Source of the DNA: Escherichia coli
Lineage (GTDB): Bacteria; Pseudomonadota; Gammaproteobacteria; Enterobacterales; Enterobacteriaceae
DNA length: 64,000 nucleotides
Assembly: GCF_013315695.1 (NCBI RefSeq)
Contig: NZ_CP054353.1
Direction: 5' to 3' (one strand)
The notes beneath the pieces were generated by a model. It was not told the DNA's origin. It was given only the letters and a program-made list of their open reading frames with translations, and did not search any database. Of this stretch, positions 1-56,698 are shown in pieces (the stretch's first letter is position 1; each line of letters opens with the position of its first letter). The translations under genes were made by a program, and so were the position numbers.

Positions 1-2
1 CG

Positions 3-281
3 TTATTTTGTCATCTGCACGTATTTTTCTGCGCTCCTGATTGTTTTCAGGAAAAGAGCGAAGAGATTTACTGTGCGTCTTGAGTTCTTTTCATCCTGGT
101 TGATGGGAATTGAACCTCTGTCAGCCTGTCTTTTCACTGTGTTAACAGCTTGGTTAGTACGCTTTGCGTAATCTTTCAGGCTTTCTTCAAGTACTGGTAA
201 CCCATGCTCATCGCGGTAGGGATAGAACGCTGCTAAACGCTCAAAGTCTGCCTGTTCGTGTGTGTTCAGGACTTTTGCCAT
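3..281 (-). CDS. Phage early-region protein in the Cox/Apl position of a P2-type immunity region; 3' end runs off the window edge
   Basis: ORF starts at 281 and runs leftward to the window edge without a stop; transcribed divergently from the C-like repressor gene, as cox is in P2. No direct sequence resemblance to P2 Cox recognised. Confidence 0.4.
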   Translation of the reverse strand: MAKVLNTHEQADFERLAAFYPYRDEHGLPVLEESLKDYAKRTNQAVNTVKRQADRGSIPINQDEKNSRRTVNLFALFLKTIRSAEKYVQMTK

Positions 282-377
282 GTGTGATAACCTGCGCTAT
301 CTGTGGTTGTTTGTGATCTGGTGTACTTATAAGTACACCTTGTGCGCAAGCTTAGTGTACTTATAGGAACACTGTCA
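282..377. promoter_or_regulatory. Putative P2-type immunity switch region with candidate operator repeats
   Basis: 96-bp divergent intergenic region; perfect palindrome GTGTACTTATAAGTACAC at 321-338 and a second copy of GTGTACTTATA at 355-365, about 34 bp apart start to start. Confidence 0.4.
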
Positions 378-686
378 ATGCTTATCGGTGAAAAAATTAG
401 AGTGATTCGTGAATCAGAGGATTTAACGCGCGAAGAATTTTGCGGCCTGATTGATGTGCCTATCGGCACTTTGCGTCGTTATGAAACGGGGCGGATTGAA
501 AACATAGGGGGCGAAGTGCTTATCAAGATTGTTAATCACCCTCGCTTTTTTAAGTACATGAATTGGCTTATGACGGGAAAAACAAATGAGGCTGCTGGGC
601 AGATCAGTCCGTCTCTCTCCCCTGATGGGCCAAAAAGCACATCGCCTTCTCAAAAACCCCGCAAGACTGGCACACAGCCCGGCTAA
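378..686 (+). CDS. P2 C-like immunity repressor (small HTH protein)
   Basis: About 102 aa from ATG 378. C-terminal half (FFKYMNWLMTGKTNEAAGQISPSL...SPSQKPRKTG) resembles the recalled P2 C repressor tail (FTKYTLWFMTNQIAPESGQIAPAL...SGQKTG); N-terminus has an HTH-like segment. Lies immediately upstream of int on the same strand, as in P2. Confidence 0.75.
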   Translation: MLIGEKIRVIRESEDLTREEFCGLIDVPIGTLRRYETGRIENIGGEVLIKIVNHPRFFKYMNWLMTGKTNEAAGQISPSLSPDGPKSTSPSQKPRKTGTQPG

Positions 687-735
687 TCATGGAGCGCTGG
701 GGGCATGGTGGTCTTGTAACGCTGGGGTTTCACGA

Positions 736-1710
736 ATGAGCATAAAATCAATTCCGGGAGGATATCTTCTTGACATGCGCCCGGAGGGGCGTAAAGGCAA
801 ACGCATTCGTAAAAAATTTAAAACGAAATCGGATGCAGTTTTATATGAGCGGTGGGTGCTGGCGCAACAGCATAACAATGAGTGGAAAGGAAACTCCATT
901 GATCGCCGTCCGCTGTCAGTGCTTATTGACTTGTGGTGGAAATACCACGGTCAGCTAATGAAGTCAGGGCATAACACGCGCCTTAAATTGCTGCGCTTGA
1001 GTGAGGCAATGGATGACCCGTGCGTGCATAAACTTAATACAACGATGCTCACCGAGCTACGTGTGTCCAGGATAGAGCAGGGGATACAGCCCAGCACCAT
1101 AAATCGAGAGATTGGGGCGTTAAGCGCGATGTTTACCGCACTCATCTCATCCGGCCATTTTCTTAACGATAACCCCGTTCAAGGCCTTAAAGGAATGAAG
1201 GTTAACGAGCGCGAAATGGGATATCTGAGTAAGTCTGAATGTGTTCAGTTGCTGGATGCACTGGCTGAAAATCCCGATGAACGGCTGGCTGTCGAAATCC
1301 TTCTGTCGACCGGGGCGCGATGGGGCGAGGTAGCGGCACTGGAGCAGCGCCGTGTTCTTCATTGTCGAATCACTTTTTCAAAAACGAAGAACAGCAAAAA
1401 CCGTACCGTTCCTATTTCTGAAAGCCTGTTTGAAAAGATCAAAAAACGGGGCGGGAAACTGGTGTTTCCGACGCTGGATTATCCATTGGTTCGCGATGTC
1501 ATCAAAACGGTCGCACCTGATGTTCCTGACGGCCAGGCTGTTCATGCGCTGCGCCACACCTTCGCCAGTCATTTCATGATGAACGGCGGCAATATTCTGA
1601 CGCTCCAGAAAATTCTGGGGCACGCAAAGATTCAGACAACGATGATTTATGCCCATCTTGCGCCGGATTACTTGCAGGATGCGGTGAGATTTAATCCTAT
1701 TGCTGGGTAA
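736..1710 (+). CDS. int: P2-family tyrosine integrase
   Basis: 324 aa from ATG 736 (MSIKSIPGGYLLDMRPEGRKGKRIRKKF...). Shares extended motifs with the recalled P2 Int (NDPC, GIxPSxINR, LSTGARWGEA, HALRH-FA-HFM-NGG-I-TLQ-ILGH, YAH-APEYLQDA). The 586 start in the ORF track overlaps the repressor gene and is rejected. Confidence 0.9.
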   Translation: MSIKSIPGGYLLDMRPEGRKGKRIRKKFKTKSDAVLYERWVLAQQHNNEWKGNSIDRRPLSVLIDLWWKYHGQLMKSGHNTRLKLLRLSEAMDDPCVHKLNTTMLTELRVSRIEQGIQPSTINREIGALSAMFTALISSGHFLNDNPVQGLKGMKVNEREMGYLSKSECVQLLDALAENPDERLAVEILLSTGARWGEVAALEQRRVLHCRITFSKTKNSKNRTVPISESLFEKIKKRGGKLVFPTLDYPLVRDVIKTVAPDVPDGQAVHALRHTFASHFMMNGGNILTLQKILGHAKIQTTMIYAHLAPDYLQDAVRFNPIAG

Positions 1711-1720
1711 GGAGGATGTT

Positions 1721-2116
1721 GTGGAAAAAACAGTTAATAGCGATTTGCATTTAGGTCAGTACTGGAGAATAGACATTGTCTGCGATCCAGAACTTCGAGA
1801 TGAGGTTGAGCAATATTTTTCTCGACACGATGTTGGTTTTAGCAAAATTGAAGTTTTTTCCGTCGAAAATCCATATAAACTTGCTCTGTTCTTTGATTTC
1901 GCGAAGAAGGGTGTGGAGGTTGCAAAAGCCATTATGGGACTCTTAGACCGAAATGATATTGAAATAACGATGTATCGTGCTACGGACAGTAGCCCGCAGT
2001 CTGTAAAAAGCATCAAATTGCGTAAGTCTGAAGACGTAGAGAAATGTAAAGATTTGCTTAGTACGTGTGTCGCAATTGGCGTTCAACGAAATAAGGAAAA
2101 AGAGGGGAGCGAATGA
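1721..2116 (+). CDS. Hypothetical prophage cargo protein, about 131 aa, acidic, no recognisable domain
   Basis: ORF in the track starts at TTG 1700; GTG 1721 is preceded by GGAGG (1711-1715) and is the likelier start. Lies between int stop and the host junction. Hand-counted GC of sampled lines is roughly 33-43 percent, against more than 50 percent in adjacent int. Confidence 0.5.
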   Translation: MEKTVNSDLHLGQYWRIDIVCDPELRDEVEQYFSRHDVGFSKIEVFSVENPYKLALFFDFAKKGVEVAKAIMGLLDRNDIEITMYRATDSSPQSVKSIKLRKSEDVEKCKDLLSTCVAIGVQRNKEKEGSE

Positions 2117-2222
2117 TCCACAAAGTGACCACATCCCTGTTATTTGTTGTGGTTGGCTGTGTTTTTGTGTGTCTGTAAGTCTTTGATAATTATCTAACTT
2201 ATTGATTTTTGTTTGTGTTTAT

Positions 2223-2249
2223 GGCCGCTCTGCGGCCTTTTTTCTTTTC
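2223..2249 (+). terminator. Rho-independent terminator
   Basis: GGCCGC-TCTG-CGGCC hairpin followed by TTTTTTCTTTTC. Confidence 0.6.
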
Positions 2250-2305
2250 ACTGTCGAAGAGTCACCGTAAAATCAACGCCATGACACTTCAGCAGAACGG
2301 ATACC

Positions 2306-3286
2306 ATGCTGACACTTGCCCGCCAACAACAGCGACAAAATATTCGCTGGTTATTATGCCTGTCAGTTTTGATGCTGCTGGCGCTTCTCTTAAGCCTTTG
2401 CGCCGGTGAACAATGGATCTCGCCAGGTGACTGGTTTACTCCTCGTGGCGAACTGTTCGTCTGGCAAATTCGCCTGCCACGTACGCTGGCTGTATTGCTG
2501 GTTGGTGCGGCGCTGGCTATATCCGGCGCTGTAATGCAGGCGTTGTTCGAAAATCCTCTGGCAGAACCTGGACTACTTGGCGTCTCTAACGGCGCAGGCG
2601 TGGGGCTTATCGCCGCGGTATTGCTTGGGCAAGGGCAACTCCCCAACTGGGCGCTGGGGCTGTGTGCGATTGCTGGCGCGCTTATCATCACTTTAATACT
2701 CTTACGTTTCGCCCGTCGTCATCTTTCGACCAGTCGGTTATTGCTGGCTGGCGTTGCATTAGGGATTATCTGTAGCGCACTAATGACGTGGGCTATCTAC
2801 TTTTCCACCTCTGTTGATTTACGTCAGCTGATGTACTGGATGATGGGCGGTTTTGGCGGCGTAGACTGGCGGCAAAGCTGGCTGATGCTGGCATTGATCC
2901 CCGTGTTGTTGTGGATCTGTTGTCAGTCCAGGCCAATGAATATGTTAGCACTTGGCGAGATCTCGGCGCGGCAACTGGGTTTACCCCTGTGGTTCTGGCG
3001 CAATGTGTTGGTGGCAGCGACCGGCTGGATGGTTGGCGTCAGTGTGGCGCTGGCGGGTGCTATCGGCTTTATTGGTCTGGTGATCCCACATATTCTCCGG
3101 CTGTGTGGTTTAACCGATCATCGCGTATTACTTCCCGGCTGCGCGTTGGCAGGGGCGAGCGCATTGCTGCTGGCCGATATTGTAGCGCGCCTGGCATTAG
3201 CTGCCGCAGAGCTGCCTATTGGCGTGGTCACCGCAACGTTGGGTGCGCCGGTGTTTATCTGGTTATTGTTAAAAGCAGGACGTTAG
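2306..3286 (+). CDS. btuC: Vitamin B12 ABC transporter permease
   Basis: 326 aa, [15 protein letters not shown]..., multiple TM segments; K-12 gene order btuC-btuE-btuD. Confidence 0.95.
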
Positions 3287-5437: not shown

Positions 5438-6106
5438 ATGAAGATTTTTTTGGAGAATCTTTATCATTCTGATTGCTATTTCCTGCCGATAAGAGATAAC
5501 CAGCAAGACCTTGTCGGCGTTGAGTTAATTACCCATTTCTCCAGTGAAGATGGTACGGTTCGTATACCGACGAGTCGGGTTATAGCGCAACTTACCGAGG
5601 AGCAACATTGGCAATTATTTTCTGAGCAGTTGGAATTGCTAAAATCATGCCAACACTTTTTTATTCAACATAAACTCTTTGCCTGGCTTAATTTAACCCC
5701 ACAAGTGGCTACTTTATTATTAGACAGGGATAATTACGCGGGCGAACTATTAAAATATCCGTTTATTGAACTGTTGATTAATGAGAATTACCCGCATCTC
5801 GATGAAGGAAAAGATAATCGCGATCTTTTGTCCTTATCGCAAATGTATCCCCTTGTGTTAGGTAATTTGGGCGCAGGCAATAGCACAATGAGAGCGGTTT
5901 TTGATGGTCTTTTCACCCGCGTCATGCTGGATAAAAGTTTTATTCAGCAACAAATCACGCATCGCTCCTTCGAACCGTTTATTCGTGCGATCCAGGCGCA
6001 AATTTCCCCATGTTGCAATTGCATCATCGCGGGGGGCATTGATACGCCAGAAATAATGGCACAGATTACCCCCTTTGATTTCCATGCTCTCCAGGGATGC
6101 CTGTAG
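5438..6106 (+). CDS. ydiV: Anti-FlhDC factor YdiV (EAL-like), ending at an in-frame TAG that appears premature
   Basis: 222 aa MKIFLENLYHSDCYFLPIRD...; stop TAG at 6104-6106 is followed by 14 in-frame sense codons (PAVPVNQITTLVQR) and TAA. K-12 YdiV is recalled as 237 aa. Confidence 0.85.
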   Translation: MKIFLENLYHSDCYFLPIRDNQQDLVGVELITHFSSEDGTVRIPTSRVIAQLTEEQHWQLFSEQLELLKSCQHFFIQHKLFAWLNLTPQVATLLLDRDNYAGELLKYPFIELLINENYPHLDEGKDNRDLLSLSQMYPLVLGNLGAGNSTMRAVFDGLFTRVMLDKSFIQQQITHRSFEPFIRAIQAQISPCCNCIIAGGIDTPEIMAQITPFDFHALQGCL

Positions 6107-6174
6107 CCTGCCGTTCCTGTAAATCAGATAACGACGTTGGTTCAGCGATAACCCTCCTGTTTGCTGGTGTTTAA

Positions 6175-23748: not shown

Positions 23749-23803
23749 GGTGATGCTGCCAACTTACTGATTTAGTGTATGATGGTGTTTTTGAGGTGCT
23801 CCA

Positions 23804-24079
23804 GTGGCTTCTGTTTCTATCAGCTGTCCCTCCTGTTCAGCTACTGACGGGGTGGTGCGTAACGGCAAAAGCACCGCCGGACATCAGCGCTATCTCTGCT
23901 CTCACTGCCGTAAAACATGGCAACTGCAGTTCACTTACACCGCTTCTCAACCCGGTACGCACCAGAAAATCATTGATATGGCCATGAATGGCGTTGGATG
24001 CCGGGCAACAGCCCGCATTATGGGCGTTGGCCTCAACACGATTTTACGTCACTTAAAAAACTCAGGCCGCAGTCGGTAA
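23804..24079 (+). CDS. insA: IS1 InsA
   Basis: Protein identical to the copy at 17176-17451. Confidence 0.9.
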
Positions 24080-24501
24080 CCTCGCGCATACAGCCGGGCA
24101 GTGACGTCATCGTCTGCGCGGAAATGGACGAACAGTGGGGCTATGTCGGGGCTAAATCGCGCCAGCGCTGGCTGTTTTACGCGTATGACAGGCTCCGGAA
24201 GACGGTTGTTGCGCACGTATTCGGTGAACGCACTATGGCGACGCTGGGGCGTCTTATGAGCCTGCTGTCACCCTTTGACGTGGTGATATGGATGACGGAT
24301 GGCTGGCCGCTGTATGAATCCCGCCTGAAGGGAAAGCTGCACGTAATCAGCAAGCGATATACGCAGCGAATTGAGCGGCATAACCTGAATCTGAGGCAGC
24401 ACCTGGCACGGCTGGGACGGAAGTCGCTGTCGTTCTCAAAATCGGTGGAGCTGCATGACAAAGTCATCGGGCATTATCTGAACATAAAACACTATCAATA
24501 A
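23998..24501 (+). CDS. insB: IS1 InsB reading frame
   Basis: Protein identical to the copy at 17370-17873. Confidence 0.85.
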
Positions 24502-24516
24502 GTTGGAGTCATTACC

Positions 24517-32517: not shown

Positions 32518-32654
32518 CGTGTAATGGCTGCATGAAATAAACAATAAAATATAAATAACATTATCAGCCTGCTGACGGCTTGAAGAGAGTCACAGTATCT
32601 TGTGCAACATTATTGGAAAGAGTGAGGGGCGAGGTAGCGAAGCGGAAAAATGTT

Positions 32655-32760
32655 AAAAAAAAGCCCATCGTGGGAGATGGGCAAAGACTACACACAGCAA
32701 TTCGTTGTTTCACTCAGGGGATTTCCATGCTTATAAATCAATATGTTGATTTATAACCGT
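32655..32760 (-). ncRNA. rprA: RprA small regulatory RNA
   Basis: Minus-strand reading ACGGTTATAAATCAACATATTGATTTATAAGCATGGAAATCCCCTGAGTGAAACAACGAATTGCTGTGTGTAGTCTTTGCCCATCTCCCACGATGGGCTTTTTTTT matches recalled RprA, including the terminator hairpin and U-tract; located between ydiK and ydiL as in K-12. Confidence 0.85.
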
Positions 32761-34444: not shown

Positions 34445-37400
34445 ATGATTCCACAGATTTCCCAGGCACCTGGCGTCGTTCAATTGGTGCTTAATTTTTT
34501 GCAAGAGCTGGAGCAACAGGGTTTTACTGGCGATACGGCGACAAGTTATGCCGATCGTCTGACAATGTCGACCGACAACAGTATTTACCAACTTCTCCCC
34601 GATGCGGTGGTATTTCCGCGTTCAACCGCAGATGTAGCGCTGATCGCCCGTCTTGCCGCGCAGGAACGCTATTCATCGTTGATCTTTACCCCCCGCGGCG
34701 GCGGCACCGGCACTAACGGTCAGGCGCTCAACCAGGGGATTATTGTTGATATGTCCCGCCATATGAACCGCATCATCGAAATTAACCCTGAAGAGGGCTG
34801 GGTGCGCGTTGAGGCCGGGGTGATTAAAGACCAACTCAATCAGTACCTGAAACCCTTTGGCTACTTTTTTGCGCCAGAACTTTCCACCAGCAACCGGGCA
34901 ACGCTCGGCGGGATGATCAATACCGATGCATCCGGTCAGGGATCGCTGGTCTATGGCAAAACGTCAGATCACGTACTTGGCGTACGCGCGGTGTTGTTGG
35001 GGGGCGATATTCTCGATACGCAACCTTTACCCGTCGAACTGGCGGAAACGCTGGGTAAATCCAATACCACAATCGGGCGAATTTATAACACGGTTTATCA
35101 ACGTTGCCGTCAGCAACGCCAGTTAATCATCGACAACTTCCCCAAGCTTAACCGCTTTCTTACCGGTTACGATTTGCGTCATGTCTTTAACGATGAGATG
35201 ACCGAGTTCGACCTGACGCGCATTCTGACGGGTTCAGAAGGGACGCTGGCCTTTATTACCGAAGCGCGACTGGATATTACGCGCTTGCCTAAAGTGCGCC
35301 GTCTGGTGAACGTCAAATATGACTCTTTTGACTCCGCACTGCGTAACGCGCCGTTTATGGTTGAGGCGCGGGCGCTTTCGGTAGAGACGGTGGACTCAAA
35401 AGTGCTCAACCTTGCACGGGAAGATATTGTCTGGCATTCCGTCAGTGAACTGATTACCGATGTTCCTGATAAAGAGATTCTCGGGCTGAATATTGTTGAA
35501 TTTGCCGGCGATGATGAGGCGCTGATTGACGAGAGGGTAAGTGCACTCTGTGCGCGACTGAATGAGTTAATCGCCAGCCAGCAAGCAGGTGTGATCGGCT
35601 GGCAGGTATGCAGTGAGCTGGCAGGTGTTGAACGTATCTATGCGATGCGCAAAAAAGCTGTCGGCCTGCTCGGTAATGCCAAAGGAGCAGCCAAGCCAAT
35701 TCCGTTTGCTGAGGATACCTGCGTACCGCCGGAACATCTGGCCGATTATATTGCTGAATTTCGCGCGCTGCTCGACAGCCACGGCTTAAGCTACGGTATG
35801 TTCGGTCACGTCGACGCAGGTGTCTTGCACGTCCGTCCTGCGCTGGATATGTGCGATCCGCAACAAGAGATTTTGATGAAGCAAATCTCTGATGACGTAG
35901 TGGCGCTTACCGCGAAATACGGTGGTTTGTTGTGGGGCGAACACGGCAAAGGTTTTCGTGCCGAATACAGCCCGGCGTTTTTCGGTGAGGAACTTTTTGC
36001 AGAACTGCGTAAAGTGAAAGCGGCATTTGACCCGCATAACCGACTCAACCCAGGGAAGATTTGCCCGCCAGAAGGTCTCGATGCGCCGATGATGAAAGTG
36101 GACGCGGTGAAGCGTGGCACATATGACCGACAGATCCCCATCGCGGTACGCCAGCAGTGGCGCGGGGCAATGGAGTGTAACGGCAACGGTTTATGCTTCA
36201 ACTTTGATGCCCGTAGTCCGATGTGTCCGTCGATGAAGATCACCCAGAACCGGATTCATTCACCGAAAGGGCGCGCAACGCTGGTGCGTGAATGGCTGCG
36301 TTTGTTGGCGGATCGCGGCGTTGACCCACTCAAACTGGAACAAGAACTGCCTGAATCCGGCGTCAGTTTACGGACGTTAATTGCCCGCACGCGCAATAGC
36401 TGGCATGCGAATAAAGGCGAATACGACTTCTCACACGAAGTCAAAGAGGCAATGTCGGGCTGTCTGGCCTGTAAAGCGTGTTCGACCCAGTGCCCCATCA
36501 AAATTGATGTGCCGGAGTTTCGCTCTCGTTTTCTGCAGCTCTATCACACCCGTTATTTACGCCCGCTTCGTGACCACCTCGTTGCTACGGTCGAGAGCTA
36601 CGCACCGCTGATGGCACGCGCGCCGAAAACCTTTAACTTCTTCATTAACCAGCCGCTGGTGCGCAAACTCTCGGAAAAACATATCGGCATGGTTGATTTG
36701 CCACTGCTGTCAGTCCCCTCGCTACAACAACAAATGGTGGGGCATCGCTCGGCGAATATGACGCTGGAACAGCTTGAAGCTCTCAATACAGAGCAGAAAG
36801 CGCGCACGGTGTTGGTGGTGCAGGACCCCTTTACCAGCTATTACGATGCGCAAGTGGTGGCGGATTTTGTCCGTCTGGTTGAAAAATTAGGTTTCCAGCC
36901 TGTGTTACTGCCATTTTCGCCAAATGGCAAAGCCCAGCATATCAAAGGCTTTCTTAATCGTTTTGCGAAGACGGCGAAAAAGACGGCGGATTTCCTCAAC
37001 CGTATGGCGAAGCTGGGGATGCCAATGGTGGGCGTCGATCCGGCGCTGGTACTTTGTTATCGCGATGAATATAAACTGGCGCTGGGCGATGAACGTGGCG
37101 AGTTTAACGTCTTACTGGCGAATGAATGGCTGGCAAGCGCACTTGACTCACAGCCAGTGGCTACAGTCAGCGGTGAATCATGGTATTTCTTTGGTCACTG
37201 TACCGAAGTTACCGCTTTGCCGGGCGCGCCAGCACAATGGGCCGCGATATTTGCCCGTTTTGGCGCGAAACTGGAAAATGTCAGCGTGGGTTGCTGCGGC
37301 ATGGCAGGGACTTACGGACATGAAGCGAAAAACCATAAAAATTCGCTCGGGATCTATGAGTTATCCTGGCATCAGGCGATGCAGCGACTGCCGCGTAATC

Positions 37401-38196: not shown

Positions 38197-38419
38197 TCCT
38201 GACTTAATGCCGCAAGTTCGCCATATCGACCTGGATTAACCTCCGTCCAGGTTCGATGGACTTCTTAATACTGCTTATCTACCCGCCTGATATTGTTCAA
38301 AAATAATACTAATCGCAGTTTGTGTTAAAACGGTGGGTTAGCTTTATGAGATTATTCTTATCGCCCCTTCAAGAGCTAAGCCACTGAGAGTGCCGGAGAT
38401 AAGCGCCGGATGGGGTAGA

Positions 38420-38466
38420 AACCCTTAAGCCTGTGATGCACAGACTTAAGGGTTTTCTTATTTCTG
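38420..38466 (+). terminator. Strong intrinsic terminator in the ydiH-sufA interval
   Basis: Perfect 10-bp stem AACCCTTAAG/CTTAAGGGTT with 15-nt loop, followed by TTCTTATTTCTG. Confidence 0.6.
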
Positions 38467-56126: not shown

Positions 56127-56432
56127 TCAGGCGAGTTTTGCCTGATTGATTTGACTCAGTGGCTCATTGACATCGAAAACTTTGGCGACAACTTCCTCAA
56201 CGCCGAGATTTTTCAGTCGGGCAGTATGTTTTTCCAGATAGGCAAGGGCGCTTTTTTCATCAGTAAAAAGGTAGATCCCACCGGCTTCGTGGTTCTTTTC
56301 ACTTTCTGTCCATACCTTCCACAGAAAACCAGGTTCCTGATTAATCGACTCAGCAAGCGGTTTAAGCTGCTCAGCCATTGCGTCGCCAAATGGGCCATTG
56401 AAAGAAAAATGAAGTTGTAACAAAGTTGCCAT
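56127..56432 (-). CDS. ydhR: Putative monooxygenase-like small protein YdhR
   Basis: 101 aa. Confidence 0.85.
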
Positions 56433-56540
56433 AGCGATTCTCCTTCTGATAACGCATACGAAGACAGTGTAAATCTTTTAACGTATTGGATACAGAGAAG
56501 AAACAGAGGGAAAAAAGGAGAAGACCAGATTAAGAAAATC

Positions 56541-56617
56541 TGGTGCGTCCGAGTGGACTCGAACCACCGACCCCCACCATGTCAAGGTGGTGCTCTAACC
56601 AACTGAGCTACGGACGC
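56541..56617 (-). tRNA. valV: tRNA-Val (anticodon GAC)
   Basis: Reverse complement reads GCGTCCGTAGCTCAGTTGGTTAGAGCACCACCTTGACATGGTGGGGGTCGGTGGTTCGAGTCCACTCGGACGCACCA, a cloverleaf with CCA end. Confidence 0.9.
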
Positions 56618-56621
56618 AGGA

Positions 56622-56698
56622 TGGTGCGTTCAATTGGACTCGAACCAACGACCCCCACCATGTCAAGGTGGTGCTCTAACCAACTGAGCTATGAACGC
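56622..56698 (-). tRNA. valW: tRNA-Val (anticodon GAC)
   Basis: Reverse complement reads GCGTTCATAGCTCAGTTGGTTAGAGCACCACCTTGACATGGTGGGGGTCGTTGGTTCGAGTCCAATTGAACGCACCA. Confidence 0.9.

Follow-up and report, generated by a model that had tools for sequence, protein, structure and literature searches.

Genes and features at the left end of the window

We analysed a 64-kb stretch of Escherichia coli DNA, hereafter the window, whose left part holds one end of a P2-family element next to the host gene btuC. The phage side occupies positions 1–2247, and the left edge of the window falls inside the element. The features of this end, in window positions, are the following.

3–281, minus strand: open reading frame (ORF) of 92 amino acids (aa) in the cox position; candidate for an excisionase of the Cox type that also represses the lysogenic promoter, from its position and a weak profile match
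282–377: divergent regulatory region with two 18-bp palindromes; candidate C operators and candidate face-to-face promoters
378–686, plus strand: P2 C-type immunity repressor of 102 aa, with a helix-turn-helix; ahead of int and oriented like it
736–1710, plus strand: P2-type tyrosine integrase (Int) of 324 aa, catalytic residues placed by conserved motifs
1721–2116, plus strand: orf131, a cargo gene of 131 aa in the slot between int and attR; phrog_14142
2117–2222: arm of the attachment site on the Int side; contains two matches to the consensus of integration host factor (IHF) and T/G-rich direct repeats
2223–2247, plus strand: attR core of 25 bp, GGCCGCTCTGCGGCCTTTTTTCTTT, which is the intrinsic terminator of ihfA
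2248–2305, plus strand: native btuC upstream DNA, identical to K-12 and outside the prophage

The host genes start at 2306 with btuC, followed by btuE, btuD, nlpC and ydiV in the same order as in K-12. The G+C content is 39–44% over 1650–2400 compared to 53–58% within btuC. On the phage side the gene order, with the cox position first, followed by C and int, which point the other way, and then att, is that of the annotated P2 map. The initial annotation of this DNA had proposed just such a P2 immunity-region layout (a divergent early gene, a C repressor, an integrase and the host junction), and the ORFs at 3–281, 378–686 and 736–1710 bear it out; its gene list had missed the 131-aa ORF on the plus strand at 1721–2116, between int and the junction. 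A scan with Rfam returned no RNA families within 1–2305.

The attachment core is the terminator of ihfA

The junction between phage and host was defined by a three-way alignment of the empty ihfA–btuC spacer of K-12, the window, and the ihfA-side (left) junction of the O55:H7 strain CB9615. A single 25-bp segment, GGCCGCTCTGCGGCCTTTTTTCTTT (window 2223–2247), is common to all three sequences. To the left of this core the window follows the phage and to the right it follows K-12, and phage-specific DNA stops at 2222. The chromosomes closest to the window in their backbone (MSB1_4I and OZ547117, both 100.0% identical), which are without the prophage, match the window only from base 2223 on, and thus confirm the position of the junction independently.

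The core coincides with the intrinsic terminator of ihfA, with a 6-bp G+C stem, a 3-nt loop and a T-run (terminator call at 2223–2237 plus the T-tail). In K-12, where ihfA and btuC are 100 bp apart with no gene between them, it starts 17 nt past the stop codon of ihfA and leaves 58 nt to the start of btuC. That ihfA lies directly upstream of btuC in K-12, free of phage genes, had been stated in the initial annotation and is confirmed by this 100-bp spacing, and the alignment to an unoccupied ihfA–btuC locus which it had suggested defines the 25-bp core. Its placing of the prophage next to btuC also stands; the boundary it gave, 2305, lies some 60–80 bp too far to the right. The true end of the mobile element is here 2222/2247. 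Since the phage brings its own copy of the terminator, integration at this exact site duplicates the 25 bp, rebuilds the terminator at both ends and leaves the btuC upstream region intact. A promoter-like site (TTTTCA-17-TAAAAT, a match to the consensus only) is found in the btuC upstream DNA at 2245–2273.

We propose that insertion would proceed by Int-mediated site-specific recombination between the 25-bp core of the phage and the identical sequence in the ihfA terminator. ihfA would keep a terminator at attL. The second copy, at attR, follows the phage genes C, int and orf131, and btuC with its undisturbed upstream region comes just after it.

The IHF consensus is matched seven times in the 64-kb window, and two of these matches (2176–2188 and 2195–2207, minus strand) fall within 32 bp in the Int-proximal arm. 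The same arm contains the T/G-rich direct repeats, at 2162–2177 and 2206–2221, and is conserved in strain SE11 (98.6% identity over window 2109–2400). In the other arm, taken from strain N31, a third IHF-like site, TAACTAATTGATT, lies 3 bp past the core and repeats the motif of 2195–2207 at 56 bp. The reconstructed attP therefore has three consensus IHF sites at most 50 bp from the core, two of which are a direct repeat, TAACTWATTGATT, flanking it. These predicted binding sites around the core suggest that Int needs IHF, and relatives of this phage are dependent on IHF. A phage with IHF-dependent relatives thus integrates 17 nt behind the gene for the IHF alpha subunit and restores its terminator, a neat arrangement which introduces no new principle.

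Integrase, repressor and the protein in the Cox position

Int aligns end to end with the integrase of phage P2 (45.5% identity over aa 1–324, E = 1.6e-99) and with those of the other prototypes Wphi (48.6%), 186 (37.7%) and P88 (43.8%). It matches the phrog_1 integrase family (E = 4.4e-73), and its motifs put the catalytic residues at R195, H270, R273, H296 and Y305. The top tblastn matches of Int in 50,697 phage records are all to P2-like enterobacterial phages, at no more than 56% identity, the best being a Klebsiella record (CP052639). The C repressor is 39.8% identical to P2 C over aa 3–100 (E = 5.8e-19), 38.3% identical to Wphi C end to end and 35% identical to P88 C, and matches the transcriptional regulator family phrog_147 (E = 5.7e-30). 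A repressor of the 186 type was considered and rejected, as C has no match to 186 CI.

A comparison of Int and C with P2, 186 and Wphi had been suggested in the initial annotation, together with the possibility that one or the other might be nearer to a family other than P2. The comparison places the pair in the P2 family, with Int matching end to end and C resembling the repressors of P2 and Wphi and not that of 186, and the possibility does not apply, the best matches of Int all being P2-like phages.

The protein in the Cox position matches phrog_11533, a PHROG family without assigned function, over its full length (E = 1.3e-54), and gives a weak match over aa 34–84 to phrog_575, described as 'Cox-like excisionase and repressor' (E = 1.1e-7). 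Its size of 92 aa compares to 91 aa for P2 Cox, and its position and orientation also fit. The protein is identical in CB9615, SE11, N31 and O111 (WP_001151410.1). Given its position, its size and the one weak profile match, we consider the gene a candidate for a Cox-type excisionase and repressor of the lysogenic promoter.

A predicted lysis–lysogeny switch

Between the Cox-position gene and C an 18-bp palindrome is present in two copies, at 321–338 (GTGTACTTATAAGTACAC) and 355–372 (GTGTACTTATAGGAACAC), spaced 34 bp. A relaxed promoter scan gave one candidate on each strand. On the minus strand, TTGACA (378–373) is followed after an 18-nt spacer by TAAGCT (354–349); this perfect −35 overlaps the C start codon, like the −35 of Pe in P2, and palindrome 2 lies in the spacer. 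On the plus strand, TTGCCA (275–280) is followed after a 17-nt spacer by TATCTG (298–303). We regard the palindromes as candidate C operators and these sites as candidate promoters.

By analogy to P2, C would probably bind both palindromes and so turn off the early promoter. The Cox-position gene would, by the same analogy, head the divergent early lytic operon, and its protein would control the switch and excision. As C, int and orf131 share one orientation, they would probably form a single rightward lysogenic operon, ended by the terminator copy at attR.

Complete prophages with this right end

Four relatives with this right end were inspected (CB9615, SE11, N31 and O111:H8 9662). In all four a complete prophage lies between exactly two copies of the core, the second of which is next to ihfA, with these core-to-core distances.

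CB9615: 35,751 bp
SE11: 35,802 bp
N31: 36,275 bp
O111:H8 9662: 37,131 bp

Of the 41 P2 proteins tested, 25 have homologues in the relatives (Q, P, O, N, M, L, X, R, S, V, W, J, I, H, G, FI, FII, E, T, U, D, ogr, int, C and A), most of them 25–62% identical and, except for an inverted FI–U tail block, in the same order as in P2. Homologues of P2 B, the lysis genes, old, tin and fun(Z) were not found among these 41. In the relatives a DNA invertase is also encoded beside alternative tail-fibre genes, parM-like genes are present, and hok/gef lies at the ihfA end.

Much of this prophage resembles P88: over 74% of its length the N31 prophage is about 96% identical to P88 at the DNA level, and the head/terminase module of CB9615 is 96–98.5% identical to that of Xuanwuvirus (P88-like) phages, and 97.7% identical to that of P88 itself. 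Where the relatives depart from P88 is the cassette for immunity and integration, the part seen in the window. In a DNA search of the 2.3-kb stretch against the 50,697 phage records no record covered more than 17% of it, and similarity to P88-like records is confined to the 3′ end of int, at 72–79% DNA identity. As orf131 also has no tblastn match in these records, the right end is absent from deposited phages. The element illustrates module swapping: its virion and replication backbone is of the P88 type, and its cassette for immunity and integration is another one.

Two further observations concern the relatives' prophages outside the stretch studied here. Their early region contains a 76-aa 'derepression protein' (the RefSeq name in N31; phrog_3688), at 17145–17375 of locus L001 in CB9615 and 35546–35776 of locus L009 in N31. 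It is also present in P88, lies outside the window, and may be an anti-repressor relevant to induction. Separately, RefSeq splits the gpD homologue into a short 'VgrG/Pvc8 family' coding sequence and a pseudogene fragment (CB9615, locus L002 13258–14111; SE11, locus L008 34320–35161). A tblastn search with P2 gpD gives one unbroken alignment of about 365 residues, and in N31 the gene is annotated at full length; the apparent truncation of gpD looks like an artefact of start-site annotation.

Occupancy of the site among E. coli genomes

Population counts were made on complete E. coli genomes, 5425 for the site and 5426 for the integrase and the right-end stretch. The ihfA–btuC interval is uninterrupted in 5118 of them (94%), K-12 included, and interrupted in about 307. 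The integrase gene occurs in 298 genomes, without exception on the chromosome, and 281 of these have it at essentially full length. With 298 carriers of the integrase against about 307 interrupted sites, almost every occupant of the site has this Int, and Int and site are tightly paired. The prophage family is found at the ihfA terminator in about 5–5.5% of complete E. coli genomes, with carriers including E2348/69, O104:H4, O145:H28, O111 and some O157:H7 strains. The 2305-base stretch itself is at least 99.7% identical in the 25 best-matching genomes, and at least 80% of it is present in 118 of the 5426.

The ihfA terminator is a recurrent insertion target, and a few other genomes carry IS200 there. 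In E. coli strain 98228 (locus L007, 5434–5892) the terminator is interrupted by IS200C instead, and similarity to the host picks up again within the T-run.

One genome, with a BtuC 91% identical to that encoded in the window, has a related element at the orthologous site. This element has the same gene order, an Int 83% identical and a C 53% identical to those described here, and the core GGCCGCATTGCGGCCTTTTTTCTTT. Gene order and site recur in a second genus.

Interpretation and alternative explanations

From the above we consider it highly probable that window positions 1–2247 are the attR (integrase-proximal) end of a temperate P88-like phage of the P2 family (Peduoviridae), integrated in the ihfA terminator. 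Several observations weigh against this interpretation. Only 2.2 kb of the element lies in the window, with attL outside. Searches for the exact excised attP junction gave no match in the viral contigs of IMG/VR and the metagenome contigs of JGI, a result which is uninformative on activity. None of the deposited phage genomes among the 50,697 records has, by tblastn, an Int more than 56% identical to this one. The Cox-position protein has no BLAST similarity to P2 Cox, Wphi Cox, P88 Cox or 186 Apl and no significant match in Pfam, and a standard promoter scan gave nothing in 282–377, the candidates there arising solely at relaxed thresholds. Finally, deletion remnants of the element exist: the match to int begins at nt 184 in O111:H- 11128 (NC_013364.1, 2191673–2192464), in RM9975 and in several O111:H8 strains, and shorter fragments are found in NCTC9966, ETEC1748 and TD225-C4. 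In the remnant of the O111:H- 11128 type int is joined to a DUF4761 gene, suggesting loss of cox, C and the 5′ end of int.

The copy in the window might itself be such a defective int-proximal remnant, left by an internal deletion. The known remnants (those of the O111:H- 11128 type and those in NCTC9966, ETEC1748 and TD225-C4) lend this some weight, as does the position of the rest of the element outside the window. Here, however, the four ORFs, the regulatory region, the arm and the core are all intact, and the stretch differs at 2 of 2305 bases from the right end of the complete 36.3-kb N31 prophage; int is essentially full length in 281 of its 298 carriers, and the four intact right ends inspected all belong to complete elements. 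We consider a remnant unlikely. Because the right end is intact and two substitutions away from the complete N31 prophage, this genome's copy is likely to be complete. It is also conceivable that the element is not a phage but a satellite or genomic island using a P2-type integrase and repressor, given that this tyrosine integrase family also serves such elements and that only the int end is visible. This we judge very improbable, since the identical Cox-position gene and the neighbouring DUF4761 gene are common to complete P88-like prophages, every inspected relative has a full set of virion genes, and the att spacing of 35.8–37.1 kb is typical of P2-like phages.

The initial annotation had also allowed for the genes being ancestral at this locus, in which case they would have been lost from K-12. 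Nothing was found in favour of this; it does not apply and we give it practically no credence: an uninterrupted 100-bp spacer is found in 5118 of the 5425 genomes (94%), a 25-bp direct repeat bounds the insert, the insert is lower in G+C, and backbones 100% identical to that of the window are without it. Ancestral genes between ihfA and btuC are thus refuted by the empty sites, the direct repeat and the insert-free closest backbones.

The gene between int and attR

In this prophage end the slot between int and attR is taken by orf131. Its product matches phrog_14142 over its full length (E = 1e-69), a PHROG family without assigned function and its sole PHROG match. It has no match in Pfam, NCBIfam or PADLOC, hence none to known defence models, and no tblastn match in the 50,697 phage records. 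The homologues form about 10 clusters, all from E. coli or Salmonella. Those at 77% and 60% identity are found in the same slot, after int and before btuC, and have ratios of non-synonymous to synonymous substitution rates (dN/dS) of about 0.21 and 0.27, respectively; values of about 0.2–0.3 argue that orf131 is a real gene under purifying selection. The AlphaFold model of the protein has a moderate mean confidence score (pLDDT, predicted local distance difference test) of 70.8, and a Foldseek search of AFDB50 with it returned only uncharacterised proteins of 110–130 aa.

In SE11 two unrelated ORFs stand in place of the segment 1698–2108, between flanks of about 98.7% identity, so that the cargo of this slot is exchangeable. 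An 'integrase-att' accessory and defence hotspot of P2-like prophages has been described (bioRxiv 10.64898/2026.02.27.708500). The slot of orf131 resembles this hotspot in being swapped in SE11, and is unlike it in that orf131 matches no defence model and is kept within its own lineage.

Our best guess, made with low confidence, is that orf131 is a lysogen-expressed conversion or defence gene. A bolder reading, which we consider unlikely, is that orf131 has an uncharacterised function, expressed in the lysogen and tied to this lineage of integrases. The likeliest version of this reading would be a single-gene superinfection-exclusion or anti-phage determinant, and a less likely one a protein assisting recombination at the terminator of ihfA. 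The purifying selection on orf131, its constant place behind int in E. coli variants and a second genus, its probable co-transcription with C and int and its lack of a recognisable domain would be compatible with this reading.

Other observations in the window

Outside the prophage end, the window contains two copies of IS1, each of 768 bp and with ends starting GGTGATGCTGCCAACTTACTG, at 17121–17888 and 23749–24516. Both are absent at these places in CB9615. A separate 9-bp target duplication flanks each copy (GCGCATGAA and TCAACGGCG), and about 5.9 kb of the ydi/fadK region lies between the two. The IS1 ends supply two of the seven IHF-consensus matches in the window.

The ydiV/rflP gene (5438–6151) has a change of TGG to TAG at codon 223 (base 6105), giving a product of 222 aa compared to 237 aa in CB9615 and K-12, with the last 15 residues lost. 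A 4.2-kb segment at 12755–16939, present in many E. coli and absent from CB9615, contains an anion-permease-like ORF of 466 aa, named from the RefSeq annotation of matching genomes, and three more ORFs; one ORF of this segment starts with what we take to be a short-chain dehydrogenase-like motif. The Rfam matches in the window, at 32653–32760 (minus strand), 38363–38423 (plus strand) and 56416–56698, are to RprA, RydB, two tRNAs and an overlapping antisense family, HPnc0260.

Comparison with known systems

The prophage end described here shares with phage 186 (Eganvirus) an integrase of the P2 family, and 186 also has a small ORF (Orf69) between int and attP. It differs from 186 in its repressor, the 192-aa CI of 186 having no similarity to the C found here, and in its site, that of 186 being the 3′ end of the tRNA gene ileY. 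With P2 and Wphi (Peduovirus) it agrees in how int, C and the divergent first early gene are ordered and oriented; att lies by int, and Int and C are homologous. Unlike P2 and Wphi, the element has an extra gene between int and att and uses another host site, and its candidate operators are 18-bp palindromes compared to the 8-bp O1 and O2 of the P2 annotation.

With P88 (Xuanwuvirus P88, the type species, Peduoviridae; NC_026014) the relatives of the element in the window have their whole architecture in common. This runs from int–C, cox, DUF4761/DUF4754 early genes, the derepression protein, the replication endonuclease and ParM through the portal, terminase and head genes, the tail fibres with a DNA invertase and an inverted tail-sheath block to D and hok/gef. 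In contrast, Int in the window is 43.8% and C 35% identical to their P88 counterparts, the 92-aa Cox-position protein is without similarity to the 141-aa Cox of P88, and P88 is without orf131. The two therefore differ in immunity and in the specificity of integration.

Among the closest described systems is a prophage of SE11, PP_SE11-4, which was reported as 'P2-like', 35.8 kb in length and lying 'between btuC and ihfA' with a 25-nt duplication (Oshima et al. 2008, PMC2608844). It has the same site and the same 25-nt duplication as the element in the window, and is 98.7% identical to window 1–1697 and 98.6% identical to 2109–2400. It differs in having two unrelated ORFs of 120 and 145 aa (phrog_4293 and phrog_9415) in the slot of orf131, and, when compared to CB9615, in the cargo between gene A and the portal gene. 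The prophage type is thus already known and fairly common, and the SE11 element belongs to the same family.

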